Source: a virus. Taken from it: 64,000 nt of DNA. The notes below the pieces were generated by a model that worked only from the letters and a program-made list of their open reading frames with translations, did no database searches and was not told the DNA's origin. Below, piece after piece: positions 37,972-63,946 of the stretch; position 1 is the stretch's first letter; the number at the start of each line of letters is the position of its first letter. The translations under genes were made by a program, and so were the position numbers. The stretch covers positions 49,819 to 113,818 of the IMG/VR virus record IMGVR_UViG_3300049914_000251; one strand, 5' to 3'.

Positions 37972-39030
37972 TTATGCCCGGCCAAATTTCCAGAAATCAG
38001 TTCCCATTTTCTCAAAAGCATACCTGCCATTCAATTCTGGTATACTGCAATCATGGATCACGTACTCACGCCTGTTATCAGTCTGCTCGCCAGGCTCCCA
38101 TTTGAACAAAGCTACCAAACTCAAAGCTTCGTCATTCAGCCACACCACCTTACTGGCCTTTTGAACAGCTTTAACAAATGAACATCGACCGCAATTCTTG
38201 CACTTAGAATTACCCATCTGGCACTTCTTCTCGGTCAAGTGCTCATCCTGCTTATACTGCATGTCAGGAGTCTCCTGAGAACCACCCGGCATAAATGGAG
38301 CTATGATAGGATTAGGAGCACGCTCCATCAAAAGAGAATCCTTTCTAACTTCCTTAGTACCAACAAACTCCTGTGCCTCTCCGGACTCTGAAACAGCGTC
38401 TTCAGTTGGTTTCATAAAAGATACCATATGATCGTTGAGATGAAATACCGCATCTGCTACTTTAGGTACGAGTACCCACTGAATAGGCCATTCAACATTA
38501 CCGGATAAGTGATCTCCTGAAATCTCTGCCCCTTCAGAAACAGACAACCTAAAATCAGCATGCACAGGTCTCCCCATACGCCAGTGTAACTGAAGCATCC
38601 CCACCGTCGAACAAGCGGCACCATTAGGAACGCCTGCCATAACAGCCTTTTCTATATTTGATTTTTCTACCTGCGCACCTGCCTGTTGCATACCCTCAAG
38701 TGCTTCTTTCTCACGGTCATAGTTATCACCCTCATCAGCCTCATCTTCAGTTAACGGCTCATCATCAAAATAACACCTGGTAGCCCTCACCCGGGACCCG
38801 CTTAATCCTGTACGCAACGATGTCATTAACCGAGCACCATCCTCCATAGTCATTTTACGCATCTCTCCGCTCTCTGGATCCCTGCACCAAACCCCTTCTT
38901 TCAAGAACTCTTTAAGATAATCAGCAAAAGGCCCTTCCAATTTTATCTTAGCATCTTTTTCCCCCATTGGAAAAATCATTTTGCAAATTACCTCGTTGTC
39001 ACTATTGAGAATATTTACATATGAGTTCAT
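37972..39030 (-). CDS. Putative head protein with LigD 3'-phosphoesterase-like domain
   Basis: LQLHWRMGRPVHADFRL motif; C-terminal LNGRYAFEKM..DFW. Confidence 0.5.
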   Translation of the reverse strand: MNSYVNILNSDNEVICKMIFPMGEKDAKIKLEGPFADYLKEFLKEGVWCRDPESGEMRKMTMEDGARLMTSLRTGLSGSRVRATRCYFDDEPLTEDEADEGDNYDREKEALEGMQQAGAQVEKSNIEKAVMAGVPNGAACSTVGMLQLHWRMGRPVHADFRLSVSEGAEISGDHLSGNVEWPIQWVLVPKVADAVFHLNDHMVSFMKPTEDAVSESGEAQEFVGTKEVRKDSLLMERAPNPIIAPFMPGGSQETPDMQYKQDEHLTEKKCQMGNSKCKNCGRCSFVKAVQKASKVVWLNDEALSLVALFKWEPGEQTDNRREYVIHDCSIPELNGRYAFEKMGTDFWKFGRA

Positions 39031-41126
39031 ACGTTCTCCTTTCCACCTTCTATTGGCTCGTTACGTCGTGGAGGACCAACCTCTCCCGTAGGAATATGGT
39101 GATGTGCATCCCACCACTCCTGAAGTGCCTTTTTCCTGCCCTGTCCTTTATCCGCCCATGCCCGATCGATTACTTCTTCAGGATAACCCTTGCCCAGTAG
39201 ATACTTCTTAGCCTGCTCTAACCCCTTATTTTCCCTATGTGTGCCAACCGACGCCACCCCACCCACATCAGCCCCTTTTCGACCCTCATTATACACTTCA
39301 TTGGCCCTATCCATTACAGCGTCGAAATTTTCCTCTGTCTTCGCATGCTTACGCTCAACAGGTAAACGTGGCTTAGGTGCGCGACGACGTACTGGAGCCT
39401 TCTCTGGCTTCGCCTCTGCCTCTGGCTTCACTTCGGGAATTACTGCTCCCTCCCTTAAAAACCCTTTGCGCTCCATCTTATCTACCGCATCATCGATATC
39501 CTCTGTAGGATATCCCTTATCCCTCATATAACCCCTAACCGCTTCTTTAGCATCTGCATGCCGATGTCCCATCCTGGCCTTTCCGAACGCCTCCTTCCAC
39601 GCTTTAGCAGCTCCAACTTCGTCCTCAGGTTTTAAAGGCTTAGCTCCGGCTCTAGGCGGTTTTGCACGAGCTACGCTATAAAGACCGTCTCCAGCTATAA
39701 TTCTATCGATACGAAACTTCATACCCTCTACCACTTTACCACCATCTTTAGCTCCAAGCAAATCTGTTATACTCTTATACATAATATCCCATTTTACATT
39801 TTTAATGTCATCCAAAAGTTTCTGCGGAACTTTGCCTTTTTCGTATTTACCACGCAAAATATCACACCTGAAACAGCCATTTGGTGTTGCCTGAGCAAAC
39901 GTCAAACCATTGTCTATGAAATACAGCTTGCCGTCATTACCATTTATAAAATTATTACCGTGCCTGTCCGTATTGTAACTAATAACATCAAACAGACAAC
40001 CCTTCCATCTATCATCGTCTGAAATCTTATCTGCTACTCCACCAGCTGGACCATCTACCCAAACCTGGGCAGACCCTATCTCACCGTCCACTTCACGAAT
40101 AACTGTAGGAGGCACCAAACCCCAGCCCAACGCCTCAGAAAGTTCATAGGCCAGCGCCTCTCTCTTATAAAAAGTACCATGATGGATAGCTCCTTCACTG
40201 GCTACGCTCCTTAAAGAACGCTCACCACTCGCAGGCTTCCAGCACTCTTTAATCTTGTCCCCCTCCACATGCATGGCCTTAGCCAGCATAGGAATGACAT
40301 TAGGAGCCTCTACCCTTATTTTGAAAATTTTATTACAGCCGCCACCCAAAACCTCCTTCTTCACACATGCTCCTGCTATAAGAGACTTATAGGCATCTGG
40401 AGAAAGACTCTTAACTAGGGGAGAAACATGTGCACCTTTAACACCCGGCTTCTCAGGCTTCTCCTCAGGTTTTTCCTCATGTTTCTCAGGCTCCTCATGT
40501 TGAGGCTTAACGAAAGGCTCAGGCTTTCCAACCACCTTAGCTTCTCGCAAACCATGCGCCAAACCACGTGCCCTCACCTCTTTCTGAATATCATTAACCA
40601 GTTTCAAATACTCTATATAATGTAACCTTAATTTACGATACAGATCACCTGTCTTTTGCTCCTTAAAAGCAGCGTCCTCAAACGCCTTCTTATACACAGG
40701 ATCGGCCGCAAACCGAATTTTAAGAAAATCTTTCTCATTTTGCGCCTGCATCCACTCTTCCTTAAGAGCAGACCTCTTTTCCCTGACGTTTCCGAAATAT
40801 TCCTTTACATTATTCCATAAAATCGTCAGTTCATTGTCATCAAGTCCCTTAATATTACCTGCGTCTACAGCACGCACTCCCTTATCATACCCAGGCGCCC
40901 ACGGATGCTCTGGCAGAAAAGCTGCTTTGCCCTCTTGCCACGCAGCTATTTCCTCCTCCCTCATCCATTTACGCTGTTTGAACTGCTTACCTCCCCGGTT
41001 TACATCGACCCACACCAATTTATAACCAGGCCTGTTAGCAAAAGCCTCTCCAGTCTGCACGGCCTTAGTAATCTCTTCTAAAGACGCTATAACTTCAGCT
41101 GCATTGATAATCTGCATTTCACTCAT
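39027..41126 (-). CDS. Tagged head protein with PI3/4-kinase / HipA-like kinase domain
   Basis: LGGGCN, WKP..GE, REALAYELS, VPPTV, NTDRHGNN, IDNGLTF. Confidence 0.8.
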   Translation of the reverse strand: MSEMQIINAAEVIASLEEITKAVQTGEAFANRPGYKLVWVDVNRGGKQFKQRKWMREEEIAAWQEGKAAFLPEHPWAPGYDKGVRAVDAGNIKGLDDNELTILWNNVKEYFGNVREKRSALKEEWMQAQNEKDFLKIRFAADPVYKKAFEDAAFKEQKTGDLYRKLRLHYIEYLKLVNDIQKEVRARGLAHGLREAKVVGKPEPFVKPQHEEPEKHEEKPEEKPEKPGVKGAHVSPLVKSLSPDAYKSLIAGACVKKEVLGGGCNKIFKIRVEAPNVIPMLAKAMHVEGDKIKECWKPASGERSLRSVASEGAIHHGTFYKREALAYELSEALGWGLVPPTVIREVDGEIGSAQVWVDGPAGGVADKISDDDRWKGCLFDVISYNTDRHGNNFINGNDGKLYFIDNGLTFAQATPNGCFRCDILRGKYEKGKVPQKLLDDIKNVKWDIMYKSITDLLGAKDGGKVVEGMKFRIDRIIAGDGLYSVARAKPPRAGAKPLKPEDEVGAAKAWKEAFGKARMGHRHADAKEAVRGYMRDKGYPTEDIDDAVDKMERKGFLREGAVIPEVKPEAEAKPEKAPVRRRAPKPRLPVERKHAKTEENFDAVMDRANEVYNEGRKGADVGGVASVGTHRENKGLEQAKKYLLGKGYPEEVIDRAWADKGQGRKKALQEWWDAHHHIPTGEVGPPRRNEPIEGGKENV

Positions 41127-41287
41127 GACTTACTCCTAATACCACTGACAGATTTTAACAGCTCGCACTGTAATATCCAAGACAGCGCCCAGCAAACCTC
41201 TTTGGGAGACAGTTTCAACTCCTCCCTACCTGCCTTGACAGTGTTCTTCAACCACTTCTGAAACTCTACCAAGCCCGGCTCTGCCAT
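41123..41287 (-). CDS. Small hypothetical protein (54 aa; not in ORF track)
   Basis: MAEPGLVEFQKWLKNTVKAG...LLKSVSGIRSKS; ATGA overlap with next gene. Confidence 0.55.
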   Translation of the reverse strand: MAEPGLVEFQKWLKNTVKAGREELKLSPKEVCWALSWILQCELLKSVSGIRSKS

Positions 41288-42360
41288 ATTACCCTCATTT
41301 TGCTCTTAAACCAATCACAACACGACGGCTGAGGAGGTTGCGGAACCTTTTGAAAATTAGCTGTAATAGATTTATCTGCGTCCATGACTATAGTAGAGGA
41401 CGCAGAATTAAACAATACCCCACCTGTCCAGTTAACGAACTGCCAACCACTCGCAGGAATAGCATTAATATCGACTACTGTATTTTCCACATAAGGATAT
41501 GTACCCACGGTCGGATCAGTTGTACCATTACCATTAACAGAAATGTTCAACAGATGATATATAACTGGTGGTGAAGGCAGCGGTTTAAATTTCAAATAAT
41601 GAGCATCATAACCACCAAGTTGCTTAAATACATCTATTGCCTGGAATGGCAGATAAAAACGACCGCTAGCTCCCCAGCCAATACCCCATGAATTTTGCCC
41701 GAAGAATAGACCCTTCTCCTGATCGTAGCCAGCCAGAATAGTTTCATGTCCCCCAGCTACATGATCTGCAGCAGATACATTTGACAATATGCCTGACGGC
41801 TCAACGTTCATCCACTTATCAAACCAGGGTGATCCTATGGATACCAACCAACCAGGTCCACCGGACAACACAGATGCCTCAGAATCAGCCAACGCTGACA
41901 TAATTCCGTTAACTCCATCGACACATCTAAAATAAGCAAACTCCGGATACTTTAATGCCTGTGCCTGCCTTTCCGAAGATGGCGCAGAAATGTCAGCCTT
42001 ATCAGGATCGTACGGCCAGAAATGCTCTAGCAAGCAACCCATTTTCAACAGCCAATCAAAACAGTCTTTAGGATATGCCCCGATATCTGATGTCAACGTG
42101 CCCTCGATAAACCTGGCACCATTATATATCCATGTCGGAGAATACCACTCTGTAAAAACGTGCAACGATTTAGCCACGGCACCTACATTAGCTCCTATGC
42201 CAAATCCGGTGCAAGAACTTACTGCTCCTTGATACCTGACCTCTGGCAACAGCCTGGACAGATCGACCGCATTTGGAAATCTAACCAGGGCCGCCCTGTG
42301 CAGATAATCACGATTATCAAACTTATCTTTTATCCAGCCCGTTACAAAACTACCCGACAT
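41266..42360 (-). CDS. Papain-family (C1A) cysteine peptidase with C-terminal InlB B-repeat
   Basis: QGAVSSCTGF, GGHETILAGY, QNSWG; intact C-H-N triad. Confidence 0.88.
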   Translation of the reverse strand: MSGSFVTGWIKDKFDNRDYLHRAALVRFPNAVDLSRLLPEVRYQGAVSSCTGFGIGANVGAVAKSLHVFTEWYSPTWIYNGARFIEGTLTSDIGAYPKDCFDWLLKMGCLLEHFWPYDPDKADISAPSSERQAQALKYPEFAYFRCVDGVNGIMSALADSEASVLSGGPGWLVSIGSPWFDKWMNVEPSGILSNVSAADHVAGGHETILAGYDQEKGLFFGQNSWGIGWGASGRFYLPFQAIDVFKQLGGYDAHYLKFKPLPSPPVIYHLLNISVNGNGTTDPTVGTYPYVENTVVDINAIPASGWQFVNWTGGVLFNSASSTIVMDADKSITANFQKVPQPPQPSCCDWFKSKMRVIWQSRAW

Positions 42361-45051
42361 TTACTTTACCCCCTTCACCGATTCTTCTACTTCGACCATT
42401 AACCGCACCGCCTTTATTTCATCTGTTGTAGGAGTAACAAAGCCCATAGATACCAGTTTCTGCTCTACCAGCTCCTCTACTTCTCTAGGCTTTGACAAGG
42501 GCTTCTTCTCCTCCAAGTTATCACCGGAGCTTCCCATATTAAGCTGTTGAGCGTTTACATCTTGATTAGTAGCAACATCCTGTGCTCCTTCACCAGGGCC
42601 CCACTTATGCGTCTGAAATACTTTACCATCTGCCATCGCCGTTTGTGGCTGCAGCACTTGCCCAGGACCCGGAGGTTTACTGGACACGCCTTGTTCACTA
42701 GGAGCTCCCGGAACCATAGGTATCTTCTCTGGAATAGGCGGCTTCTGTAATTGAGACCCCTGCTTATAAATCTCAACCAATTTAACCAGATTATTGCACT
42801 CAGCCAACTCCCTAACCTCTTTGCTCAGCTTATCATCCTTGCCCATCCTATCCTCCTGATTTACTAACCCATCAGCAGATTTCACCCACAGCGGAGCAGA
42901 ACTTGACTGCGTAGCCCCGCCTCCCATCTTCTTGACCCTCTCAACTTCCTTCTCAGCAAGTTCATTCTTAACTTTGTCCTCTTCTGAATAACAGATATCA
43001 TCTGCACCTCCACCACCAGAACCGCCTGGATACGGAGTAGCTCCTTGAGACCGTGTTACTAACCCCTTATTGTACGTTTTTTCGTCCTGAACCTTGTCCT
43101 TAGGCGCCTTCGGCTCTTCAGTCACCTTCTCTTCCATCATAATGGTTTTATACGTTCCTGTCTTAGAAGCAGGATCAAGTAACTGCTCCACGCCGTTGAT
43201 TTTTTGAGGTTGTTGCTCCTTTGGTTTCACTAACAGTTTAGCATCTAAAGACGTTACTAAACCACCAGCGGTGTACTGATGCCCCGTAGGATGAGATCCT
43301 TCCTCATCTTCGTTCTGCCACCCTACCGTGCCGTAACTCTCCTTATTCTCTCCCTGCTCATTACGATGCTCAACATCTTCAGGACTTTCCTTACCGTGAA
43401 TCACCACAGCCGCTCCTTTGGCCTTCTCCAACTCATTGTTCAGCTCTTCAACTTTATCATCACTGAAAAGATCTTCAGGCTCATTTGAAATATATTTATT
43501 ACACACGCAATTAGGATCCACAAACCCCACAAATGGGCACCACGGAGTACCAAAATTAGATACCATTGGATCTGACCTGTCAGGTTCATGATAAAACCCG
43601 CAATACATGCATCGCATTTCATCGTCTGCTGGACGATACCCCACATCTCTAGCTAGATCCACAGCCACTTCTAAAATTGAGGACACGTTAGATAACAGCG
43701 CATTTGCTGCTTCCATTATCTCAAGATTAGGAGCCTTCACAGCCTTCTCCAGCAATTCCAAAGATTCCCCAGTCAATCTGTTCTCCGGTACTTTAACCCC
43801 GGACTTAGCAACATTATCCCTAATCACCTTATAAAACTCAGCTGCATCCTCATCCATAGCATCAGGATGATATATTGCAGCCTTACGATTAACCAGTTGA
43901 CTCATCACCTGCTCTCCAGCCTTCACAATCTGATCCTCTGTGTACTTAGCAGATCCTGATTTCATCATCTTGTAAAAAGCCGACAGAACTCTCCAATCAT
44001 CGGCAAGCTGCCTGTTATCAAGTTCAGTGGGATCGTAATAATCCAATTTCTGCTTACGCAGTCCGCCCTCACACTTAATACCAGAATCCACTTTCTTGAG
44101 AGAATTCATATCATCCTCAGAAAGAACCTCTCCAATACCCTCACTCGGACTATCATTTCCTCTTGCTACGTTATCTCCTGTAGTTGGCCTTAGCCCGGCA
44201 CCATAAACTCCGCCTCCTCCACCTTCCACAGTGCCAGTAGAGTCCTTCTTAATTTGCAAAGCATCCATCTGAGCCACAACTTCCCTTGCCTTTACCATAG
44301 CTATCTGCGTAGGCGGAACATACTCTACACCATCAGCGTGAGCGTAAAACTGAATACGATCGTACGCCACATATACCTTGTTAGGATCCACCCCTACTTC
44401 CTGAGCCATACTCCGCACCTTTTCCTCTAATTGACTGTGTGTAAACTGCATATGACCTATGTGCGTGAAAATAACAGATTTTATTTCCAACTCCTTGCAC
44501 ATCTTAAGTGAATTATAAATGCTCTGATGTCCCGCAGGCTCTGTCACATCGTCCACTAAACTGTTGCCACAAAGCACAGCTACTGACACTCCCTTAATTG
44601 ACTTAGGTTCATCTATCCTTAAAAAATCAGGAGCATATGCCACACTGATATCCTTGTACTTGAAAATGAACCCCACTGTGGTAGTGTCCTTAGCATGAGT
44701 AACTACAAATGGGTCAATCTTAACTCCATCAGGCAGCTCAGCGCCACGTTGAAGATAAACTACCGTACCCATAGGCAAATCAGGAACTCCCATGATATGA
44801 TCACCGTGCCTATGGGTAACGAAAACAGCCTCGGGTATTAAGTCCTTCATCTGCTCCTTAATATCCGGGCCGCAATCAAAAAGTATCAGACGGCGATCGC
44901 AGTCTATCAAACAGGCTGCCTTCATCCGCGCTGATAACCCCTTCTCGGCTGCCTCTTTACATTGAGGACAATCACACCCTTCTTTCGGTAATGCATGCCC
45001 ATTACCCGAACCAAGTACTATCACACTCACAGTCTTATCAGTCTTTTCCAT
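42361..45051 (-). CDS. Polyvalent head protein: N-terminal MBL-fold hydrolase (PhnP-like), HiPIP-like Cys domain, tags
   Basis: LGSG...CDCPQC, THRHGDH, YAPD, FTHIGH, VAYD; CMYC...C...C; GGAGG SD supports ATG 45051. Confidence 0.8.
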   Translation of the reverse strand: MEKTDKTVSVIVLGSGNGHALPKEGCDCPQCKEAAEKGLSARMKAACLIDCDRRLILFDCGPDIKEQMKDLIPEAVFVTHRHGDHIMGVPDLPMGTVVYLQRGAELPDGVKIDPFVVTHAKDTTTVGFIFKYKDISVAYAPDFLRIDEPKSIKGVSVAVLCGNSLVDDVTEPAGHQSIYNSLKMCKELEIKSVIFTHIGHMQFTHSQLEEKVRSMAQEVGVDPNKVYVAYDRIQFYAHADGVEYVPPTQIAMVKAREVVAQMDALQIKKDSTGTVEGGGGGVYGAGLRPTTGDNVARGNDSPSEGIGEVLSEDDMNSLKKVDSGIKCEGGLRKQKLDYYDPTELDNRQLADDWRVLSAFYKMMKSGSAKYTEDQIVKAGEQVMSQLVNRKAAIYHPDAMDEDAAEFYKVIRDNVAKSGVKVPENRLTGESLELLEKAVKAPNLEIMEAANALLSNVSSILEVAVDLARDVGYRPADDEMRCMYCGFYHEPDRSDPMVSNFGTPWCPFVGFVDPNCVCNKYISNEPEDLFSDDKVEELNNELEKAKGAAVVIHGKESPEDVEHRNEQGENKESYGTVGWQNEDEEGSHPTGHQYTAGGLVTSLDAKLLVKPKEQQPQKINGVEQLLDPASKTGTYKTIMMEEKVTEEPKAPKDKVQDEKTYNKGLVTRSQGATPYPGGSGGGGADDICYSEEDKVKNELAEKEVERVKKMGGGATQSSSAPLWVKSADGLVNQEDRMGKDDKLSKEVRELAECNNLVKLVEIYKQGSQLQKPPIPEKIPMVPGAPSEQGVSSKPPGPGQVLQPQTAMADGKVFQTHKWGPGEGAQDVATNQDVNAQQLNMGSSGDNLEEKKPLSKPREVEELVEQKLVSMGFVTPTTDEIKAVRLMVEVEESVKGVK

Positions 45052-45554
45052 TATATCCTCCGACCGGCAGTGAGAATCCATATTTCATCTGCCCTGTCCG
45101 GATTCTGTAAAAAAGGTTCTATTACAGTACGGAACAGCTCACTCACATTTGGAGCATCTCCCAGCGGTTTCCACTTTCCATCTTCCAGCACCTTATACCA
45201 TACCCGGACCTGCTCACCATCTCCTATGTGATGGTGAATGTCCAGTTTAATAACCACGCCTTCCCTATTGACAGTAACCATCCCGGGAGACTTAAAACCC
45301 AGCCCCATTCTGCGCGAATTAGACTCTATATCATCGTTTACACGTTGCACAAGCCTGTCCTTCTCCTCTTTCTCCATAAGTTTCAATCTTTCCAGCTCGG
45401 TGGCCTTCTGCAACTCATAAGGTTTGCACCAGCGAACAGACTTATATGTCCGCCCTCCGAGATTGACCTCTGTCTCGCGTAGAAAGAAGCCTTCAGACTG
45501 CTTACGCAGTTCAAGCTCACGCCTGACTATAGACTTTTCGAGTTCTTCAGTCAC
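45051..45554 (-). CDS. Small tagged head protein
   Basis: ELEKSIVRRELELRK then GFFLRETEVNLGGRTYKSVRW. Confidence 0.65.
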   Translation of the reverse strand: MTEELEKSIVRRELELRKQSEGFFLRETEVNLGGRTYKSVRWCKPYELQKATELERLKLMEKEEKDRLVQRVNDDIESNSRRMGLGFKSPGMVTVNREGVVIKLDIHHHIGDGEQVRVWYKVLEDGKWKPLGDAPNVSELFRTVIEPFLQNPDRADEIWILTAGRRI

Positions 45555-45562
45555 TAAATCTC

Positions 45563-46333
45563 CTAATCAGCTCCGCTTTCTGCCCTATCAGCACACGAAT
45601 CACACTGATAATGATGAGCAGCATCCTCTCTCGTCAACCTGTTCGGCTTTTTACAGGTAGGACACGGTAGATTACGAGGGTTATGCTTAGAAGCTGCCCT
45701 TAAAGCGCTCCTACCACCAGGATCAGCAAATCTTATTGGCTCTCGCCCCTCATCCTCAGCCTCTAAACCCCGTTCATACTCGTCATCATCTTCCTGTTTC
45801 CGAATACTCTCTGAGACTATCCCACCTTTAGATGGCTTACTCTCCTTACCTTCGGTTGCCTCTTCGACTATCCCACCTTTTGATGGTTTGTCCTCACCAG
45901 TTTTAGGCGGTCTGTTCCACCAATCAACGCTCTTATGTTTCTTCGGTGGTATGTACTCCTCATCTTTCTTCACATCCTTACCTTTAATAGCAGTTTTAAC
46001 CTTTATACCCTTCTTATCTTTCTTATCTGACTTGAGCTGTCCTTTGAATGCGCTAGAAAGATAAACCGCCCCCTTCTCAAGCTCTCGCAGAACTACTGTT
46101 TTAGGATCCTTATCGTGAATATAAGACTTATATAGCTCTACCACTTCTTGAGCCTTCTTCACATCAGTACCTATCACATCACCGAACAGTTCAACAATCT
46201 CGTTTGCTACCGCGTCTAAATCAACGTTAGCAACCTCAGCCTCATTCGCTACTGCATGTTTGAACGGTTTCTGTGTCTGAAGTATCAGAAGAACCAGCTC
46301 CTTTAACTTCTTTTCGTCCTTCTCCTCCGCCAT
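45563..46333 (-). CDS. Tagged head protein with C-terminal Zn ribbon
   Basis: KTVVLRELEKG; NPRNLPCPTC...YQCDSC. Confidence 0.65.
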   Translation of the reverse strand: MAEEKDEKKLKELVLLILQTQKPFKHAVANEAEVANVDLDAVANEIVELFGDVIGTDVKKAQEVVELYKSYIHDKDPKTVVLRELEKGAVYLSSAFKGQLKSDKKDKKGIKVKTAIKGKDVKKDEEYIPPKKHKSVDWWNRPPKTGEDKPSKGGIVEEATEGKESKPSKGGIVSESIRKQEDDDEYERGLEAEDEGREPIRFADPGGRSALRAASKHNPRNLPCPTCKKPNRLTREDAAHHYQCDSCADRAESGAD

Positions 46334-46729: not shown

Positions 46730-48472
46730 TTATAGCGACTGCTCAGGATATATACCTTTGGGGTTATTCGCATCTAATCCCGTAATAGGTTTAGACACCT
46801 CGGATTTCTTTTCTTTCGGGCCCTCACACTCAGCACATTCTCCAGTCGGACCCAAAGACCTCAGCTCCTTCCAACAAGTTTTACACGTGCCATAACCCCT
46901 GGCTGCCTTCTCCAGTTCATACAGCACTACAGCTTTCTCCAATCCCAATGCCTCGACTCTCTTCAACGGAACTCCTTGAACCCAGCCTTTCCCACCGTAA
47001 TTCTGTGCCACTACTACAAACTCCCCATGTGCAGGAATCAGAATTATCTCTCCTAAATCAGGCAAAGGTTCTCCAACCATAAAACTCGCTCTAGCAGTTT
47101 CGCCTACCCTCAAGGCCTTGCGCCATCTGGCTTGCAGAACATCCTTTACCTCTCCGGCCTTTTCTTTCTCACCCCCAACGGCCTCTTTAAAGGCTTCAGG
47201 ATCTCCAGCATGTAAACGATCTGTCAGGCCTCCTACGGCGTGTAATTTCTCCTCACCCTTACTCTCCTTAGGAACATCCTTCTTAGGTACTACTTTCGCC
47301 TGCGGCATTACTGATTTAACTCCCAAAATACCGCCCACATTTAAAATCTGGCCTATCACCTTATGCATTATCTCATAACCAGAATAGCTTTCTACGGCTT
47401 TAGCTTCTCCTCTCTTAGCAGCTTCCTTCCATTTAGCCATTCCCGACTCAGCCCCTTTCATGGCATGCCACAGTTGCTTCTCAGATAGGTCAGCCTTCAC
47501 ACCAGCCACATCACCTTTACGATACGCCCCTATTGCCTTGCCTAACATTATCTTATCAAGACGATCATCCCTTACCTCGTGAGCTAAAGGCCAAAGGTGT
47601 TTCGGCTTAGGCACCACTAATTTCTCATGCGTCAACAATCTTTCCTTGTTTTGAGGAGGTGCTCCTCTAACTACACTTCGCGCTTCACGATAAGCATCCC
47701 GGGCTGCCACTAACCCAATATCAAACCTTGCTCTTGCGACCTTCAAAATTTCAAGCATATCAGGATCACTGGTAGCCTTAATACTATCCACCATAAACTT
47801 AGCCAGCGCTTCCTTTTCATCCGGTTTCAAATCAAAATACTCTTTATTATACTTCCTAGGCTCAGGCTCGACCGCAACAGGATGTCCTTTAGGTAGCTCC
47901 ATACCCATTTTCTCCATGACAAATCTCTGTGCTTTGAGCGGCAAATCTTCCATCTTTATAGCCTGCCCTAATTGCCCATAGGTAATCTTATTACCGTAAT
48001 CCCCAGCATACTGACCAAACCCATTAGGAGCGTAAGGATCCTCATCAAACCCGTAAACGCTACCATCAGGAGTAATTAGAGTATATCGATCTACTGCCTT
48101 ACCTGGCCCCTCATCAAATATTCTCGGTCCTTTGGCTTCTTCGGCCTCCCGTGCTTTAATCCTTTCGGCCTCCCGTGCTTTAATCCTTTCATACTCGGCT
48201 ACCCGTAAATACTTTATTTCAGGCTTAGGAGCTATTTCTTGACCCCCAGCAGCTCCTGGAACTTTCGCAGGTTCAACTATCCTAGCCCCTTCTGGCAGCT
48301 TCTCGCCCTCTTTCATCCACCTGTGAGACTTAAAAGGTACTGCTCCACGATGTACTATAACTTCAACCAGATTATATCCTGGTTTACCCGGATTACTCCA
48401 CCCGGCAAGTTCCAATTCGATATCCTTCTCCAATTCCTTTATAACAAGCTGCTTCTCCAATGATAGTTCCAT
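46730..48472 (-). CDS. Tagged polyvalent head protein
   Basis: Tags at both ends; PGYNLVEVIVHRGAVPFKSHRW; DRYT...P..PNGFGQ module. Confidence 0.65.
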   Translation of the reverse strand: MELSLEKQLVIKELEKDIELELAGWSNPGKPGYNLVEVIVHRGAVPFKSHRWMKEGEKLPEGARIVEPAKVPGAAGGQEIAPKPEIKYLRVAEYERIKAREAERIKAREAEEAKGPRIFDEGPGKAVDRYTLITPDGSVYGFDEDPYAPNGFGQYAGDYGNKITYGQLGQAIKMEDLPLKAQRFVMEKMGMELPKGHPVAVEPEPRKYNKEYFDLKPDEKEALAKFMVDSIKATSDPDMLEILKVARARFDIGLVAARDAYREARSVVRGAPPQNKERLLTHEKLVVPKPKHLWPLAHEVRDDRLDKIMLGKAIGAYRKGDVAGVKADLSEKQLWHAMKGAESGMAKWKEAAKRGEAKAVESYSGYEIMHKVIGQILNVGGILGVKSVMPQAKVVPKKDVPKESKGEEKLHAVGGLTDRLHAGDPEAFKEAVGGEKEKAGEVKDVLQARWRKALRVGETARASFMVGEPLPDLGEIILIPAHGEFVVVAQNYGGKGWVQGVPLKRVEALGLEKAVVLYELEKAARGYGTCKTCWKELRSLGPTGECAECEGPKEKKSEVSKPITGLDANNPKGIYPEQSL

Positions 48473-54096: not shown

Positions 54097-54651
54097 TCAC
54101 TTCTTTACTTGCTTGGACTTGTCAGACCCTGTAGGATCGACAGCCTCTGCTGGTTGTGCAATATCAGGCACTTCCGAAGGCTTAACATCGCCTTTAGCAT
54201 GAACCTGCTCCGGATCCTCTGACTTTTTCATTGATGATGTACTTATCTGTTCCCCACCCATCATATAGCGATCTTTAGGCTTAACCGCCTTGGATCTAGG
54301 CCCTCTGAGCAGACCGGTTTCGGAACTTTCTGCATATCCCCTTAAGGTTCCACCCGGATATTGTTTCTCTCCACCCGGCTTTGCCATTTCTCCAGAAGGA
54401 ACTTTCTTCTCCAACTCATGCAGCACTACAGCCTTCTCGAGATCCAATATCTCAGCCTTCTCGAGATCCTTTGCGATATCTGCTTCAAACTCCTTCTCAT
54501 ACTCAGCACATTTCTCCTCATCAGCTCCTGACTCAGAAGGCCACTGACCTGTAATTTTCTTATGCACCGTAGCACAGTATGCCTGTGGATTAGATTTATC
54601 TTTGTTTGCAGCCACACATGCAGCGAAGTTCTTATACTCCCCGAACGGCAT
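54097..54651 (-). CDS. Tagged head protein with N-terminal PFG.Y..F..CV..N....NP.AYC module
   Basis: DLEKAEILDLEKAVVLHELEKK; GGAGGT SD. Confidence 0.65.
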   Translation of the reverse strand: MPFGEYKNFAACVAANKDKSNPQAYCATVHKKITGQWPSESGADEEKCAEYEKEFEADIAKDLEKAEILDLEKAVVLHELEKKVPSGEMAKPGGEKQYPGGTLRGYAESSETGLLRGPRSKAVKPKDRYMMGGEQISTSSMKKSEDPEQVHAKGDVKPSEVPDIAQPAEAVDPTGSDKSKQVKK

Positions 54652-55281: not shown

Positions 55282-55289
55282 TTATCCTC

Positions 55290-55514: not shown

Positions 55515-55523
55515 TCTTCCCTC

Positions 55524-55922
55524 CTATCCTGTCGAATTAGAAGGCCATCCCATTGCCTTCTCCTCTTTAGGTTTATTCTCAGCTGCCAATTCTTTCTTTG
55601 ACGGCAACCTGTGTTTCAAATCAGGATGACTCCTCAACTGCCTGTAGGGATCCTCTACATCTCCATAAGGATACATCCTACTAGGCTCTGTCTCACCCTT
55701 AAAATGAGATGACATGTCACCCTCTTTTGCTATGACCTTCTGCTCTTTCGGCTCCTCTCCGGTCTGAGGATTTACATACCGTACTGCCTGAATATCATGT
55801 TTACCGCTCTTGACTGTAATCAGCCTAGGCTCAACATTAGTTAAATGTTTAAAATGGCCTACAACCACTCCTTTGCACAGCTCATACAAAACTATTGCTT
55901 TCTCAAGTTCCTTATTCATCAA
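55524..55922 (-). CDS. Small tagged head protein
   Basis: ELEKAIVLYELCKG then PRLITVKSGKHDIQAVRYVNP. Confidence 0.65.
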   Translation of the reverse strand: MMNKELEKAIVLYELCKGVVVGHFKHLTNVEPRLITVKSGKHDIQAVRYVNPQTGEEPKEQKVIAKEGDMSSHFKGETEPSRMYPYGDVEDPYRQLRSHPDLKHRLPSKKELAAENKPKEEKAMGWPSNSTG

Positions 55923-56095: not shown

Positions 56096-56706
56096 TAAAC
56101 CCCTTTCCAGAGCCTAATAAGCCTCAGGTCCTCTTTCGTCTTCTCAACATGACAATCCTTGCTCATCACCTGCAAATTTGTCCATGCATCCGTTCCGCCT
56201 AACGCTCTGGGTATAAGATGATCACACTCCAATTTGCTAACATCGGTTTCACCACAAACTACACATGGTTCCTTAAGAACATAAATAAGAAAAGCTGCTT
56301 TATGTTTCCACGTGTTCTTATGCCTCTCTAAGCAACCTTTGATGTACAAACGACCCTTCTCAGTTTGTAAATAACGCCTATGCGCCTCACCATGCAATTT
56401 CCTAGCCCTCTCAGTCGAAGTATATTGACTACGTTTTTCTGGATGCTCCCTGCCCCAAGTATTTGCCCTCGATATACACTCCTCCGCATGTCGTTCATAA
56501 TAAGCCTTATCTCTTTGAGGCTTTCGAGTTTTAGCGTTACCATCGGGATGGATCTCATTACTCCGACTAGAATCAATCTGATTACCCATCACCCTACGGA
56601 CGCAAGAACTGGTACATCCCACAGTTCTAGCCGTCAACCTGATACCATACCCTTTATAAAGGTACAGAAACCTTATCAAAGCATGATTATAAACCCTATT
56701 TCTCAT
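56095..56706 (-). CDS. HNH endonuclease with N-terminal HTH
   Basis: CVVCG...CDHLIPRALGGT..W.NLQVMS.DCH; TGATG overlap with portal stop. Confidence 0.82.
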   Translation of the reverse strand: MRNRVYNHALIRFLYLYKGYGIRLTARTVGCTSSCVRRVMGNQIDSSRSNEIHPDGNAKTRKPQRDKAYYERHAEECISRANTWGREHPEKRSQYTSTERARKLHGEAHRRYLQTEKGRLYIKGCLERHKNTWKHKAAFLIYVLKEPCVVCGETDVSKLECDHLIPRALGGTDAWTNLQVMSKDCHVEKTKEDLRLIRLWKGV

Positions 56707-59700
56707 CAAATCCCCTTTGGCATCCTCGCTAAACTGCATCGCTGTCTATATACGTCGTTTTGGCCCGTAGTAGGACTGATAGGATTGCGCCACAGCCTCT
56801 TAATCTCCTCGAATGTGTATGGGTTCCCTCTCTCGAATTCCAAGCTCACAGCCTTAACTCTTTCATCATGTGTAGCGATCCAGTAATAACCGTACTCATC
56901 TTTAAACGGATCTTGCTCCCATGCTAACAGCCTTCCCTCATTACTTATCTTACTAATCTCTGTCCTAACTATCAGCTCTGCCCGAGTATCCGCAATATCT
57001 CCGACCTCTTTTATCTTCTTCTTCATTGCCGGAAGGCTAAACTGCACTTCTCCTTTGAAGGCATCTCTTATTACTCCAGCTATTGCCTGATGCTGTTCCC
57101 TGCCCATGTCCTTAACGGCCTCCAATATACCATTCGGATTCTTGATTATCCAGTTATATCCCAGCCTATGCATCGTTCCACCTAAAGCTACTCCGCTTTC
57201 CTTCATACCAGCAGCAAGACCTGTCTCGTAAATGCTCCATGATATCGGTGTTGCCGCTGCAACTGTGGTTGTAGCATACTTCTTAATAAAAGCATTCAAC
57301 CGGTCCTGAACTTCCCCTTCAGTCATTTCTGGTTTCATTTCATCCAAGAACTTATTTAACTCTTCCCGGTAATTACCCTTGATAATCTTCAAAAGCTCAG
57401 GTTCGTACTTCTTAGCTCCTTTCGGCAGCTTACCTTCCAGCTTTTTCCGAACATCATCAGGCAACTCAGATACCGCCTTCATCAAATCAAAAGGGAGTAT
57501 TCTTAACCCCATGCCTTCGAGATGCTTGGACAGCTCCGAAACATATCCCGGATACCCCAATTTGATCCTGCCTTCTCCTACCCCCTTCACCAAAACTTCG
57601 CACACGCGAGATGTCAATTCTGGATCCTTAGTTCGGACTATGCCATTTCTATCTATATGTCCCAAACGTTCATCTCCACGGTAAATATCATAGCCTACAG
57701 ATTTAAAAACCCCGGCCGAAAGTCTTTTAGGGTCTATTTTAGGTTCAAGAGAACCCTGCTTATATGACTCTTCTACGTATATACGTGCATCTCTTTCTTT
57801 AGGAAATCCTATTACGGCCGGTGCCTTATATCCAGAATGTTTAACAGTAACTCCATAACCATCTCCTCGCTCCGCAATACTCATTTCAACAGCAGCGCCG
57901 CCGATTTTCCCTTTGAAATTTGTCTTGTTCTCATCAACCGTTACGCCTTTTTCCTCCCACCAGGGCTTCTCAGGTTCCGGTCCTTCTGGCTGTTCCTCTG
58001 AGTGCTCTCCTGTCCGGTGTTTCTGAACCTCAGGATGAAACTGGTTCTCATAACCACCATGCCCCTGTACCGCATGCCTATGTTCCTTTACACCAGCCTT
58101 ATTCATCCTAGTCTCAAGAATCACGCATGCAGATTTATTCAGCTGTCCAGATAAAGCTAATTCCAACTCTTTCTTTACCTCCTCTTTCTTATTTTTTTCT
58201 GCCTCAGAAGTTTCCTGTGCCGGAGGAAGTTGTTCCAGCATCTGTTCAGGAGTAGCAGCCTCACCTTCCCTTGGTGCTGGCAACGTTGCCTCTCCACCCA
58301 TTTCCCCCTCAGGTACTCCACCTTCTGCCCCAGGCGGCATCCCAGCCCCACCTTCTGCCCCAGGCGGCATCCCAGCCATCATTGGAGGCGCTGGTGGTTT
58401 CGGCTTTCTACTAAACACAAACTGATCTCTATCATCGAGAGAAACCTCAAATCCCATATTAACCATTTGCATAGCTATCGCAGTCTTTGCTGACCTCTCT
58501 TCCAATAACAACATCTCTGTCTTCTCTTCTGGTATAGCCAACCTTATCACAAAGTCCGTAACTCCAAAAGATTCCAATATCTTGGGTAATACCTTTAGAT
58601 TCCAAGACTTCTGAGCCGACTCTACCACACGACCCATCACTACCAGCTGATTAGTAGAAGTATCCCGGCCTCCCACCTGAGCAGGAGAACCCATGAAAAT
58701 CCTGGACACTCCCCACATACCAGCGATAAAATCACCTATCCGGTCGGAAATATTCTGGAAATCCATCTCCTGGAAATTCGAGCCAAAGCGGATATACTCC
58801 GTCTTGCCCTGACCGGTTCTCTTAGAAACCGCTACCCAGGCGATGTGATGCGGATTCTCCCGCAGTTTCATCTCCTGGTCCTTAATACGCTGCTCCAATC
58901 CTAGCGGGTCATCCGTTACCGTAACGATTACTCCAGGTGGTATAATTCTCTCGTAGAAATAATCATATAACCACCTGTCCATGCCCAACATTGTCAGAGC
59001 TTTCTCATACACCGACAAAATTGGCGAATACCCGTATGTCTTGCTCGGAGCGTATCTGCTCCAGTGAATAACTTCCTTCCTAATATAGAACCTGTACTTG
59101 CCACGATACAGATACCTGTACATGGCCGGGTACATCTTTCTGCCGCACTCCGGACATACAGGCGGAATCTCTGCTGCCTGCACCTTCTCTGACTCCGGAA
59201 CAGCTACTTGTGGAAACTCCTGATATCCCGGTGCTACCACGTTGGAAGAAGCCTCATCTCTCCTGTGCATAATACAAACATAATGCGCTCTCTCCGGCAT
59301 ACCATTGGCATCCAGGTCAAACTCGATGTTGCAGGGATCCATCCTTAGAATCTGCTTCATCCTCTCCTTTACAGGAGGTTCCTTATCATCAACGTTAAAG
59401 AAATACTCCTTGACCAACAACATGAAACCGTCATCCACTATATTCACATCGTCTTCGCACTCCCGGCAAACATCCTCTAATGACTGATCAAAATCATTGG
59501 CTTTTATCATAAATTTCATGAAGTATTTCAACTGCATCGGATCAGGATCCCTGGTATCCCACTCCTTAGTTACAATACCTTCTTTATTGCGCTCTATGCA
59601 GTTAGGACACTTCAGCGTCTGATGATCAAATTCGCTCTTACATTCCGGATTCATGCAAATCTTAACAAATTTAGGAACAGGAGTATCAAACCCCCGCCTG

Positions 59701-60011
59701 AAAATCTCGTTTCTTATGTTAATTACCGAAGCTCTGATTGGTGTAACAGCGAAGGCTATCGTGTACAGGTTGTCCAAACGTGCCCTTCTGGAATAGTACA
59801 ACTGCTGTCGAGCCTTAAATCCAATATCCTCTACGCCTATTGGTGACGTAGCCGACCTTCTGGTATCAGAATCCATAAACTCTTTTACCTTCTTCTCAAC
59901 AGCCGTCATCGAAGACCCCGAAGGCCCTTCTTTAGACTTACTCAATTCCATAAGATGCGTCCTGTCTGGCATCATAGGTGTTCTCGTTATGTCCCATCCC
60001 AATACCTTCAT
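56706..60011 (-). CDS. Portal protein fused to a MuF (SPP1 gp7-like) head morphogenesis domain
   Basis: EVIH...YGYSP...YDYF...IPPGVI...FQEMDF (portal); RAELIVRTE...YYWIATHDERV...RC (MuF); follows TerL. Confidence 0.85.
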   Translation of the reverse strand: MKVLGWDITRTPMMPDRTHLMELSKSKEGPSGSSMTAVEKKVKEFMDSDTRRSATSPIGVEDIGFKARQQLYYSRRARLDNLYTIAFAVTPIRASVINIRNEIFRRGFDTPVPKFVKICMNPECKSEFDHQTLKCPNCIERNKEGIVTKEWDTRDPDPMQLKYFMKFMIKANDFDQSLEDVCRECEDDVNIVDDGFMLLVKEYFFNVDDKEPPVKERMKQILRMDPCNIEFDLDANGMPERAHYVCIMHRRDEASSNVVAPGYQEFPQVAVPESEKVQAAEIPPVCPECGRKMYPAMYRYLYRGKYRFYIRKEVIHWSRYAPSKTYGYSPILSVYEKALTMLGMDRWLYDYFYERIIPPGVIVTVTDDPLGLEQRIKDQEMKLRENPHHIAWVAVSKRTGQGKTEYIRFGSNFQEMDFQNISDRIGDFIAGMWGVSRIFMGSPAQVGGRDTSTNQLVVMGRVVESAQKSWNLKVLPKILESFGVTDFVIRLAIPEEKTEMLLLEERSAKTAIAMQMVNMGFEVSLDDRDQFVFSRKPKPPAPPMMAGMPPGAEGGAGMPPGAEGGVPEGEMGGEATLPAPREGEAATPEQMLEQLPPAQETSEAEKNKKEEVKKELELALSGQLNKSACVILETRMNKAGVKEHRHAVQGHGGYENQFHPEVQKHRTGEHSEEQPEGPEPEKPWWEEKGVTVDENKTNFKGKIGGAAVEMSIAERGDGYGVTVKHSGYKAPAVIGFPKERDARIYVEESYKQGSLEPKIDPKRLSAGVFKSVGYDIYRGDERLGHIDRNGIVRTKDPELTSRVCEVLVKGVGEGRIKLGYPGYVSELSKHLEGMGLRILPFDLMKAVSELPDDVRKKLEGKLPKGAKKYEPELLKIIKGNYREELNKFLDEMKPEMTEGEVQDRLNAFIKKYATTTVAAATPISWSIYETGLAAGMKESGVALGGTMHRLGYNWIIKNPNGILEAVKDMGREQHQAIAGVIRDAFKGEVQFSLPAMKKKIKEVGDIADTRAELIVRTEISKISNEGRLLAWEQDPFKDEYGYYWIATHDERVKAVSLEFERGNPYTFEEIKRLWRNPISPTTGQNDVYRQRCSLARMPKGI

Positions 60012-60028
60012 TTTGCCTTCCTTTCGCC

Positions 60029-61909
60029 CTACGGCCTCGCCATGTTAGGTGCGGCTACTGGTCCATTTTCTGGCTCATCCACAGCTACCCGCTGTGATTT
60101 CTTCTTATTATACCAATCAGCCACTACCGTACTGTCTTTATAGATCTCAGCCAGCGCGTCTGCTTCTTTACCATACTGCCATCTTTGATTCATCTGCGCT
60201 TTATCTAAAACAGCCTTAGCCTCAACCCGGGTCTTTCCAAATATCTGCTGCACGTCACCTACTGTCCTGGCTTGAGCTGTTTTTCTGGCATCTATCTCAG
60301 CAGCTACTGCCAGCATCCAGGAAAAGAAAGCGTCACCGTGACCTTCCTCAGTAGATGCCGATTTCAAATCGTTACGAACCTGGATGATCTGAGACTTCTG
60401 CCTGTCATCATCTAACAGCCTAACGTGCCTGTGATTTACCTCTCCCTCAAGTGCCGTGGCCATTTTAAGTTTTCCGCGAGCGTCTGTAGTTTTACTATCC
60501 CGAACACTGAACACTACCGGTTTACAAATTGTAGGCTCTAAACCACGATCTTCCAACTCTCCTCGGGTGTTATCCCAATAAAGAGAATCTATCCCAAAGA
60601 CCTCGATCATTCGGTTCACATATTCTACCTGTGCCGTATAATCCATGTCTTCGAGATAAATAGAACAAATCTGAATCTTGGTCTCCCCTTCCTTCCTGAA
60701 TACTGAAAGATGACTAGGATGCTGTTTCTTACCTATGTCCATCCCAGCAATTATTACTTCATCTGGATTACTTCTAATGTACGGATACTCCATAGTGCAA
60801 CGTGGCAAACTCTTATCTATAATACCCTCAATGTCCCCGACCTTAAAATAACTGTCAGACAATGATGCGGGCTGACACATGAACTCTCGCGAATATGCTT
60901 TTGCCTTAATAGCATCTCTTTGCTCATGCAACCAAGCTTTATCATAATTAGCCCATAAACAGTCATATCGCCAGCCCGTTGCGATAGACTCTCCCTCTAC
61001 TTCCACATCAGTGAACCTGTTAACAGCGTTCACACCTATTTTACCAGCGTCTACCCCAGCCATAACGAAATCAACATAATCAGACGCGCCGATATCGAAA
61101 ACACACCCATCCTCAGCCGGTAATTTACGCCACAAATAGCCCTTTCTCTTTTTCACGCTGTGCAGAATATCCCTTGGATCTTGTGGAGTACCTACTATAG
61201 TAAGAGAACCACCTTTTACCGGCAAACTTGCATGTGCCCCATTATACGTCTTCTCGATACGCTGCAACTCTGACGGAGTAGCCAAACCTTCCGTAGAGTC
61301 TGGCAAAATATCATCCAATATCACAAAAGCAGGGTGCAGTCCACGAACAGCTGTAAATATTCCTGCTCCGAGAACCTCTATCCGCCTCTCCCCTAGTTGA
61401 TAATGAAGGCTCTTCACGGATTGCTTGTTCAGATCCTTAAACTTCGTAAAGAACCTATTCTCAGAAATAAGACCCCTGATAATACTAAGATGATGAGCCG
61501 CCAGATCGTCCCTGTATGACACATACATACCAAAATTAAATCTCAACATCCTCCACATCGTTTGAGCATGCCCGCAAATAGTAGATTTCAACGAATAACG
61601 CGGACCTATTTCACAAACGCGGGCCTTACTTTGTATATCCCTGCACCATATGTGATGATGCCAGTTCAACTCAAACTTAAATAACGATTCCTTTTCATAA
61701 GAACACGGAAGAACGTACATACAAAAATTTTCAAAATCATAAATAGATGCCTTAAGGATTTCCTTATCCTTAACCTCCAACCCCTCAAACAGAACGGGAT
61801 CAATATGAGCTACCGCCTCTTCCACGTCTTCCGGATGACTCATACCATGTTCCAGTCTGTCGCTTATATCACCTATACCCTTGATTCCGTCCTTAGTATC
61901 CTTAGTCAT
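60029..61909 (-). CDS. terL: Terminase large subunit
   Basis: GPRYSLKST Walker A, VILDD Walker B, VGTP, SREFMC, IAGMDIG, HGDAFFS. Confidence 0.9.
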   Translation of the reverse strand: MTKDTKDGIKGIGDISDRLEHGMSHPEDVEEAVAHIDPVLFEGLEVKDKEILKASIYDFENFCMYVLPCSYEKESLFKFELNWHHHIWCRDIQSKARVCEIGPRYSLKSTICGHAQTMWRMLRFNFGMYVSYRDDLAAHHLSIIRGLISENRFFTKFKDLNKQSVKSLHYQLGERRIEVLGAGIFTAVRGLHPAFVILDDILPDSTEGLATPSELQRIEKTYNGAHASLPVKGGSLTIVGTPQDPRDILHSVKKRKGYLWRKLPAEDGCVFDIGASDYVDFVMAGVDAGKIGVNAVNRFTDVEVEGESIATGWRYDCLWANYDKAWLHEQRDAIKAKAYSREFMCQPASLSDSYFKVGDIEGIIDKSLPRCTMEYPYIRSNPDEVIIAGMDIGKKQHPSHLSVFRKEGETKIQICSIYLEDMDYTAQVEYVNRMIEVFGIDSLYWDNTRGELEDRGLEPTICKPVVFSVRDSKTTDARGKLKMATALEGEVNHRHVRLLDDDRQKSQIIQVRNDLKSASTEEGHGDAFFSWMLAVAAEIDARKTAQARTVGDVQQIFGKTRVEAKAVLDKAQMNQRWQYGKEADALAEIYKDSTVVADWYNKKKSQRVAVDEPENGPVAAPNMARP

Positions 61910-62674: not shown

Positions 62675-62876
62675 TACAGCCACCAATTTCCGACACTTCC
62701 TCTTTTACTGAATACACATGCTTAAAATGTTCCTCCAGCGGAGTATTTATATAATCCCCACAGCCCTTATCCAGCGAATGAATGATTTTATGATGCAGTT
62801 TGCACCTGTCACCTGCAGTTAGCTCCACCTTATAATGATCGCACAGACCGCATTTCTTATCTGCCACAGCTATCAC
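62667..62876 (-). CDS. Small Cys-rich metal-binding protein
   Basis: CGLCDHY...C..H......C.DY. Confidence 0.6.
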   Translation of the reverse strand: MIAVADKKCGLCDHYKVELTAGDRCKLHHKIIHSLDKGCGDYINTPLEEHFKHVYSVKEEVSEIGGCNA

Positions 62877-63946
62877 ACTTTCTCACACTTAACAGGTTCT
62901 CCCGGCCTCTCAGTAGCTACCTTACTCCTGTAAATATCAGGGGCCGCCTCTGCTTGGGGCATCTTGTTCTTTGCCGGATCTGGCTTCTCTGATTCCTCTC
63001 CTTCTTTGGGCATCTCAGGAACAGGCTCCGGTGGGTTGCTAATATCTTGTATAGTAGGCATCTGAGCCTCTTCACCCGGTTGAGCACCTAAACCACCGAC
63101 TTTAACCAGTTCAAACAATACCAGAGCTTTCTCTAAATCAACCTCTTTCTTAAATATTCTCTCCCACAACTTCTTACCAATACCTGCCTTCCTCTCCGGA
63201 GGTGTCCTGACAGGAGAAAGCCCCTTCGCACTAGGTGGTCTTCTGCTACTCTCTGGTGGTGGTGGTTTCCTATAAAATCTTTTTGGTAATTCCTCTTTAC
63301 CCCAAGGTTCGGGCACAGGCGTAACAAAGGGCCTTCCCCGCTGTCTACCAGCTGCCAATATAGGAGCCAGTTCATCCCAATTACCTTTGTCCTGCTGTAA
63401 ACGAGTAGATTGTCCGTAATGAATTACTTTATCGGTCGGCTTAATCTCATGATGTGCTACCCACCGACGATCTGACTTACCCTCATCATCAGTAGTATCA
63501 ACCAAAGCGTATCCGGGTGCTCCTGCAAAATACTGGTTTCCTGTGTCTTCTTTAGAAATCTCCCCATCCTTTTCCTTATAAGGAGCAAGCCCATGTTCCT
63601 TCCTTTGATGCGCTATCAATTCAGAATAAGCCTTTGAACGGACTTGACAATCTCCCTGCCTACATCTTAAATGTGTAGTTGAAGTAGGACTCATATAAGT
63701 ATCGTGTTTGATCTCCGGATGCTTTTCCTTTATATGCTCACCCTTAGTATATAAACGACCGTCGTCATGATACCCTACATGCTTCTCACAATAATCGCAC
63801 CATTCGGCAGAAACCTTGTTGTGCCTTTTCTGTTGTCCACCCGGCTTCCAATTCTTATCAGGATCGTACCACTTCTTAAGATCCTCTATGACCTTTCGCT
63901 CCTTTTCCAGATCTCGTAAAACTAAAGCTTTATCAATATCGCCCAT
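62873..63946 (-). CDS. Tagged protein with two C2H2-like Zn fingers (start may lie further upstream)
   Basis: IDKALVLRDLEK, DLEKALVLFELVK; CDYC...H....H and C....C...L..H....H; GGAGGT SD before ATG 63946, though the frame is open to the window edge. Confidence 0.65.
   Translation of the reverse strand: MGDIDKALVLRDLEKERKVIEDLKKWYDPDKNWKPGGQQKRHNKVSAEWCDYCEKHVGYHDDGRLYTKGEHIKEKHPEIKHDTYMSPTSTTHLRCRQGDCQVRSKAYSELIAHQRKEHGLAPYKEKDGEISKEDTGNQYFAGAPGYALVDTTDDEGKSDRRWVAHHEIKPTDKVIHYGQSTRLQQDKGNWDELAPILAAGRQRGRPFVTPVPEPWGKEELPKRFYRKPPPPESSRRPPSAKGLSPVRTPPERKAGIGKKLWERIFKKEVDLEKALVLFELVKVGGLGAQPGEEAQMPTIQDISNPPEPVPEMPKEGEESEKPDPAKNKMPQAEAAPDIYRSKVATERPGEPVKCEKV

Follow-up and report, generated by a model that had tools for sequence, protein, structure and literature searches.

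Proteins that are packaged in the head of a phage and enter the host by injection are an established concept, and ART, Zeta and SAM lyase enzymes, among others, are so regarded (PMC5512222, PMC9503650), the classic head-packaged anti-restriction protein being DarB of phage P1 (PMC5512222). In T4, a short N-terminal peptide, the capsid-targeting sequence (CTS), is borne by the internal proteins IPI-III and by Alt; the peptide is described as 10-19 residues long and as cut at L/I-x-E by a protease of the gp21 type (PMC9026906, reviewing Mullaney and Black 1996). Outside T4, little is known of how tailed phages choose the proteins that travel in the head and are injected, and the evidence on polyvalent proteins comes from comparative genomics only. 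Here, we analyzed the final 64 kb (hereafter, the window) of a single contig of 113,818 bp from an uncultivated phage, without a terminal repeat (IMG/VR record IMGVR_UViG_3300049914_000251, positions 49,819 to 113,818). Among its head genes, we describe a module of ~55 residues, a LEKAxVLxELEK helix motif followed by a basic beta-hairpin, which heads otherwise unrelated proteins and which we refer to as the tag. The minus strand carries every gene of the window, and coordinates are those of the window.

The initial annotation had pointed to eight clear copies of a 12-residue amphipathic motif. All eight LEKAxVLxELEK copies are confirmed, in six proteins and on the minus (coding) strand. A profile built from them gives the eight copies 17.9-25.8 bits in a scan of the 1,812 six-frame fragments of the 113,818-bp contig, while the next best match scores 3.6 bits. 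All copies fall within the head block, which accounts for 8,631 of 36,886 aa (23% of residues), so that the expected lack of the motif outside the head genes holds for the whole contig. A simple pattern search returned seven copies, every one in a minus-strand coding frame. In composition-preserving shuffles of the proteome, the 7-residue core pattern, observed seven times, is expected 0.37 times (with a maximum of 4 in 1000 shuffles), and a 10-residue pattern, also observed seven times, is expected 0.008 times. Synonymous sites differ between the helix copies, which places the conservation at the protein level and rules out an origin of the motif as a DNA-level repeat. Half of the copies (four of eight) start with residue 4 or 5 of their protein, immediately downstream of ribosome-binding sites of the GGAGG type, and the other four are internal. 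The looser copies that had been suggested in the portal and in a metallo-beta-lactamase-fold (MBL) protein find no support, the best MBL match reaching 4.3 bits. The C-terminus of the scaffold-like protein (LTKAVEWL...GATFKQ), which looks tag-like by eye, was rejected at a profile score of -3.7 bits.

What had been described as a 12-residue tag is confirmed as a helix motif, but the full unit is larger, comprising the helix and a beta-hairpin over ~55 residues. The hairpin, with the consensus RPGLVxKKVxVxRGGKTFxQxRWVxPGE, is present in four window proteins, of 580, 132, 167, and 699 aa, and lies at residues 21-59 in all four carriers. It follows the helix motif at a spacing of 4-14 residues in the 580-, 132-, and 167-aa proteins, which have ~50 residues in common, and stands behind a diverged helix in the 699-aa protein; the spacing is longer in some relatives. 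Against a hairpin profile built from 80 copies, mostly from outside the window, these four proteins score 31-49 bits and the next match in the genome 4.3 bits. Strongly basic and aromatic in character, the hairpin has a conserved Trp or Tyr, and an acidic linker rich in Pro comes after it. Just upstream of the hairpin, an [EQD]-K-[AQS] triplet occurs in 29% of the copies, compared with 4.5% of background windows. No Pfam or PHROGs model covers the tag, even at lenient thresholds.

AlphaFold2 models agree with this two-element description. For residues 1-75 of the 580-aa protein, a helix (residues 3-22) and two strands (33-42 and 45-54) are predicted, with predicted local distance difference test (pLDDT) values of ~81-88 over these elements; helix and hairpin are free-standing, joined by a loose linker, and the predicted TM-score (pTM) is low. 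The model of the full 167-aa protein likewise contains a helix at residues 2-20 and strands at 24-32 and 35-43, with a mean pLDDT of 80.7.

Seven proteins of the window carry the helix motif, the hairpin, or both. The initial estimate of about ten was too high; the recurrence among unrelated proteins stands, since the tagged proteins are mutually dissimilar outside their tags. They are listed below in coding order. The 357-aa protein (62873..63946, minus strand) has helix motifs at residues 4-15 (63902-63937) and 271-282 (63101-63136), starts at a Met preceded by GGAGG, and contains two C2H2-like zinc-finger patterns. Its gene sits upstream of the terminase gene, so that the proposed confinement of the tags between terminase and protease applies to most copies and fails for this one. 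The 132-aa protein (55524..55919, minus strand; also counted as 131 aa) has both elements, the helix at residues 5-16 (55872-55907) and the hairpin at 29-55 (55755-55835; 31 bits). In the 184-aa protein (54097..54651, minus strand), the hairpin is absent and an internal helix motif at residues 71-82 (54406-54441) is preceded by a half copy, DLEKAEIL. The N-terminus of the same protein (54097-54200 region) shows a Cys-x14-Cys pattern (…NFAACV…NPQAYCA…) and a weak match to phrog_6439 (E = 1e-3); the pattern presumably resembles a motif that starts other phage head-region proteins.

The 580-aa protein (46730..48472, minus strand) opens with a helix at residues 5-16 (48425-48460) and a hairpin at 31-57 (48302-48382). 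Another copy of the helix motif, at residues 511-522 (46907-46942), immediately precedes a CxxC...CxxC zinc ribbon. A partly diverged internal helix, PKTVVLRELEK (20.7 bits), is found at residues 77-87 (46073-46105) of the 256-aa protein (45563..46333, minus strand), which has a zinc ribbon at its C-terminus. The 167-aa protein (45051..45554, minus strand; GTG start) has its helix at residues 5-16 (45507-45542) and its hairpin at 21-47 (45414-45494), followed beyond the module by a long helix and then an alpha/beta domain of unknown function. The last 31 nt of this open reading frame (ORF) overlap the MBL gene as annotated from its ATG (45051-45081, minus strand); either translation of the MBL protein begins at a Met further along, or there may be translational coupling between the two genes. 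For the cargo parts of the 580- and 167-aa proteins, no functional lead was found. In the 699-aa protein (39027..41126, minus strand), a diverged helix at residues 10-23 (41058-41099) and a hairpin at 33-59 (40950-41030; 49 bits) precede a PI3/PI4-kinase-like domain at about residues 235-487, which matches bacterial SCO1664/HipA_2-type proteins. The looser copy noticed earlier at the N-terminus of this kinase-like protein is thus upheld through its hairpin.

The hairpin is widespread outside this genome. A profile built from seven modules and run against 1.84 billion cluster representatives returned 77 proteins of 74-2249 aa at E<=1e-3, of which ten have E values below 1e-10, and re-scoring located 76 hairpin copies in 72 foreign proteins. 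In 53 of the 72, the first copy falls among the initial 70 residues; in 15, the hairpin starts no more than 15 residues from the Met, and hardly any helix, or none, precedes it. Several foreign proteins have a full LEKA-type helix and hairpin at the N-terminus, and giant polyvalent proteins display repeated hairpins at domain junctions. Among the 81 proteins collected, the domains assigned by Pfam include ADPrib_exo_Tox (11), ART (7), Zeta toxin, ART-PolyVal, NUDIX, InPase, and SAM lyase, as well as topoisomerase IB, RadC, DNA ligase, GNAT, LPD1, and metallopeptidases. At least two domains of effector type are present in P0086 (ART-PolyVal and Zeta) and likewise in P0077, where a Strawberry-notch-type helicase is fused and the N-terminal part is MuF-like by eye only. 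A word-index search with one hairpin yielded 12 candidates, and every one having a domain is an ART. Across phages, the module heads or separates domains typical of packaged effectors, which bears out the early description of a portable tag, with similarity limited to the tags and varied domains behind the hairpin elsewhere.

Where context is available, the tagged genes lie in a recurrent neighborhood of portal, MuF, and protease genes, seen in the window, in its relative L001, in the independent viral contig L092, and in the cultured Lysinibacillus phage vB_LfM_LysYB1 (Herelleviridae). In LysYB1, an 872-aa protein (M3_0224) has the hairpin at its start and a PARP catalytic domain at its end, and its gene is directly upstream of portal, S78 protease, and major capsid protein (MCP). 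The order in L092 is terminase large subunit (TerL), portal, a 250-aa protein and a DRAT-like ART that are both tagged, a MuF protein in which the tag separates MuF from the C-terminal domain, a protein with a PI3/PI4-kinase domain, and the S78 protease. The L092 kinase-like protein (14887-16077) is homologous to the middle of the window 699-aa protein. A PI3/PI4-kinase-like gene is thus placed just upstream of the prohead protease in two distant lineages, tagged in the window and with no tag detected in L092. The protease is of the S78 type in all three lineages checked. Matches also occur in the Bacillus phages YungSlug (annotated 'PARP polymerase') and Nachito and, at 21-22 bits, in Thermus phages: in Lalka27b, the hairpin lies near the N-terminus of a DarB-like anti-restriction protein, and in phiMa in the gene after a MuF-like gene. 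ARTs like those behind the tag are fused to minor head or MuF proteins in cultured phages, among them cyanophage PSS2 and the PaMx28 group.

Close relatives of the virus were found neither by TerL tblastn of cultured phages nor by a single TerL query of IMG/VR, and a back-translated motif pattern had no match in IMG/VR. A TerL alignment search retrieved L001, whose TerL is 45% identical, and metagenome and genome scans retrieved L086 to L090 and distant contigs of metagenome-assembled genomes (MAGs). Diverged copies of the module head proteins in L001 and L090, counted as the nearest relatives; in L001, these proteins are encoded downstream of portal and MuF, and L090 has two further copies. 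In L086, a contig of only 2.2 kb with a TerL 81% identical to that of the window, the ortholog of the 357-aa protein retains the second helix copy; the C-terminal 100 residues of that protein are 58% identical in L086, including stretches outside the motif. The tag is also the stretch best conserved in the 167-aa protein, whose orthologs show overall identities of 73% and 38%. As far as can be told, the strongly conserved LEKAxVLxELEK helix, which also occurs alone at internal sites, is specific to this lineage. In sum, the module exists, is under selection, heads unrelated proteins, and is confined to the head block in this genome.

Since the hairpin heads toxin-like and anti-defence enzymes beside portal genes, it probably labels capsid-carried proteins. 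From gene content and comparison, we lean toward reading the module as a two-part label for head-packaged, injected proteins that would be capsid-targeting in function, as in T4. The tagged proteins would be built into the procapsid beside the portal/MuF complex and would later leave with the DNA. The widely conserved hairpin would be a generic handle, docking to a conserved part of the head or to DNA, and the lineage-specific helix would be read by the phage's own machinery. The helix might also be where the S78 protease cuts, either close to the Lys-Ala of LEKA or behind ELEK. Such a site would explain the helix-only copies at four internal junctions, namely those in the three hairpin-less proteins and in the C-terminal part of the 580-aa protein. 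Together with the foreign proteins that open with the hairpin, these copies fit cutting in or after the helix that would expose the hairpin. The most specific form of this idea is a 'cut-and-carry' code, in which S78 would recognize the helix and cut there, leaving each cargo module with the hairpin at its N-terminus, by which it would be held on portal/MuF or DNA and fed through the tail; we put it forward tentatively and regard it as unlikely in this full form. The [LIV]xK[ASG] pattern is enriched in the head block, with 60 observed compared with 30.5 expected (~2-fold over shuffles, the excess coming partly from the motif itself), and 1.2-fold elsewhere; as a sign of cleavage after Lys, this enrichment is suggestive only. 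A T4-like L/I-x-E cut site in the motif was rejected: [LI]xE occurs 100 times in the head block for 89 expected, and the protease is of the wrong family.

Several observations weigh against the label for head cargo. The support for it in this virus comes from genes, comparison, and models. The helix profile finds no match in the scaffold, protease, MCP, or portal, the known protease substrates of this phage, so that the motif is not its general cut site. Fold searches with both AlphaFold2 models returned no solved structure at E<=1e-3 and hence no hint of a partner. Four of the eight helix copies come without a hairpin. The tag heads effector-type domains in other phages, as the idea of effector loading would have it, but the MBL and papain-like proteins offered as examples in the window lie in the same block untagged, and genes that are not cargo (collagen-like, cohesin-dockerin, HNH) are also part of the block. 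The genomic context covers only a few of the 77 matches. In MuF-fused proteins, finally, the domain ahead of the hairpin is a head component in its own right, and an address would add nothing; the position of the hairpin there argues for a role in each module, such as processing, handling, or target binding, rather than a pure address.

In the main rival explanation, a small binding unit made of the hairpin, alone or together with the helix, works inside the host cell rather than in the capsid and holds effectors on DNA, RNA, or another abundant target; late co-expression, or packaging through another route such as MuF, would then be all that lies behind its place among head genes. The basic character of the hairpin with its conserved Trp or Tyr and the acidic Pro-rich linker would suit such a unit, as would its presence before every module even in MuF-containing proteins and the zinc ribbons or fingers of several tagged window proteins. 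Against this rival, the hairpin matches no known nucleic-acid-binding unit by fold or sequence, effectors of very different targets have it in common, and neither the fixed N-terminal register nor the restriction to the head block is expected of a general binding domain; we consider this explanation rather improbable. A passive spacer, or a folding or oligomerization element spread among accessory proteins by domain shuffling with no address or processing role, would account for the module at the domain junctions of giant proteins and for the free-standing, loosely linked AlphaFold models with their low pTM. Spacers are rarely the best conserved part of a protein, as the tag is in the 167-aa orthologs, and the consensus is maintained across very distant phages with the helix register fixed at residue 4-5, which makes a spacer a still weaker candidate.

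Common descent could also produce shared N-termini: the tags would then be relics of a paralogous family that has diverged beyond recognition, and not portable. The tagged genes are indeed clustered, and the 132-, 167-, and 580-aa proteins are alike over ~50 residues. The similarity, however, ends sharply at the tag, internal and repeated copies are present, and what stands behind the tag is a kinase-like fold in this virus but ART, SAM lyase, NUDIX, PARP, and DarB-like domains elsewhere, so that paralogy appears very unlikely. The motif is rich in Leu, Glu, and Lys, residues common in helices, and a generic coiled coil had been named at the outset as an outcome that would undo the idea. A chance or coiled-coil pattern, or a translated DNA repeat, is nevertheless scarcely credible in view of the gap of at least 14 bits to everything else, the seven occurrences for 0.008 expected, and the synonymous differences that exclude a repeat.

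Pfam and PHROG scans place the tagged genes within the following order on the coding strand. The block starts with the 357-aa protein, a 206-aa ORF, the terminase large subunit (60029..61909, minus strand; phrog_38, E = 6e-31), and a portal fused to a MuF-like domain (1101 aa; 56706..60011, minus strand; Pfam/PHROG). An HNH endonuclease, small proteins including a cohesin-dockerin protein, and a 1231-aa collagen-repeat protein follow, and then further small proteins with a second HNH, the 906-aa MBL protein (42361..45081, minus strand), which has a long low-complexity tail and no significant tag, and the untagged papain-like peptidase with an InlB B-repeat domain (41266..42360, minus strand). 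The end of the block comprises the 699-aa protein, a 352-aa protein, the prohead protease (Peptidase_S78, HK97 type; 37067..37930, minus strand), a third HNH, the scaffold-like protein (34626-35648), and the MCP (33178-34626); the protease and the last two (33178..35648, minus strand) are untagged.

The 206-aa ORF between the 357-aa gene and TerL matches no family; it could encode the small terminase. Portal and MuF-like domain form a single 1101-aa protein in the window and separate genes in L001 (a 904-aa portal and a 348-aa MuF-like protein). A 186-aa protein (54721-55281, minus strand), flanked by two tagged proteins among the head genes and with no PHROG match, consists of a cohesin domain (E = 6e-9) and then a type I dockerin (E = 3e-11). 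Possible roles are a capsid decoration that links to itself and a docking part. The three HNH endonuclease genes inside the head block (56095-56739, 46242-46697, and 35687-36217, minus strand) include one after the portal gene and one before the scaffold gene, and the second HNH has a homolog at the matching site of L001. Two small paralogs (53650-54054 and 53036-53653, minus strand) have a common N-terminal domain starting M-[LM]-[VI]-LNPGD. The second of them has collagen-like GxY repeats at its end, and its gene shares 10 nt with the start of that for the 1231-aa collagen-repeat protein (49350-53045), for which no upstream open frame suggesting a frameshift fusion was found. The paralogs and the collagen-repeat protein may be head or tail fibres inside the head block.

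The conserved helix-plus-hairpin header marks candidate head-carried and polyvalent proteins across distant phages, including cultured Bacillus-group and Thermus phages, and predicts which unannotated genes would be injected effectors. In the window, it flags seven candidate cargo proteins, among them the PI3/PI4-kinase-like enzyme. The tag could also become a tool for loading proteins into HK97-type capsids; if the 'cut-and-carry' code were true, adding ~55 residues would load any protein into such capsids and release it inside them.

Compared with the T4 CTS, the likeness is that of a short N-terminal peptide common to otherwise unrelated proteins. In the review's account of T4, these proteins are brought into the head and injected, the peptide can be transferred to foreign proteins, and related phages differ in their cargo. 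The differences are that the unit here is ~55 residues long and also occurs internally and repeated, that the protease is of the S78 (HK97) type and not the gp21 type, and that packaging and cleavage are shown in T4, whereas the window module is known from genes. There is also no sequence similarity, the tag being unlike what we take to be the T4 CTS sequence. Encapsulin cargo-loading peptides offer another likeness, in that a short peptide sends diverse enzymes into an HK97-fold shell; they are usually C-terminal, extended, and Gly/Ser-rich, are unrelated in sequence, and bind the shell protein directly.

Polyvalent proteins (Iyer, Burroughs, Anand, de Souza, Aravind 2017, PMC5512222) have the same repertoire of ART, Zeta, NUDIX, InPase, RadC, SAM lyase, LPD1, and DarB-like domains. 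A description of the tag was not found in the literature, nor by text search of that paper. Polyvalent and MuF- or portal-fused effectors also lie in the same gene neighborhood of portal, MuF, and protease, and the hairpin is found inside bona fide polyvalent proteins (PMC5512222; PMC9503650). They differ from the window cargo, which is encoded as separate, mostly single-module genes and not as one giant polypeptide: the tagged window proteins have at most one recognisable domain (kinase-like, in the 699-aa protein), fewer than the two of the polyvalent definition. The processing by a zincin-like peptidase proposed for polyvalent proteins (PMC5512222) has no evident counterpart in the window. 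The finding is thus a helix-bearing form of an undescribed, recurrent tag on a known class of proteins.

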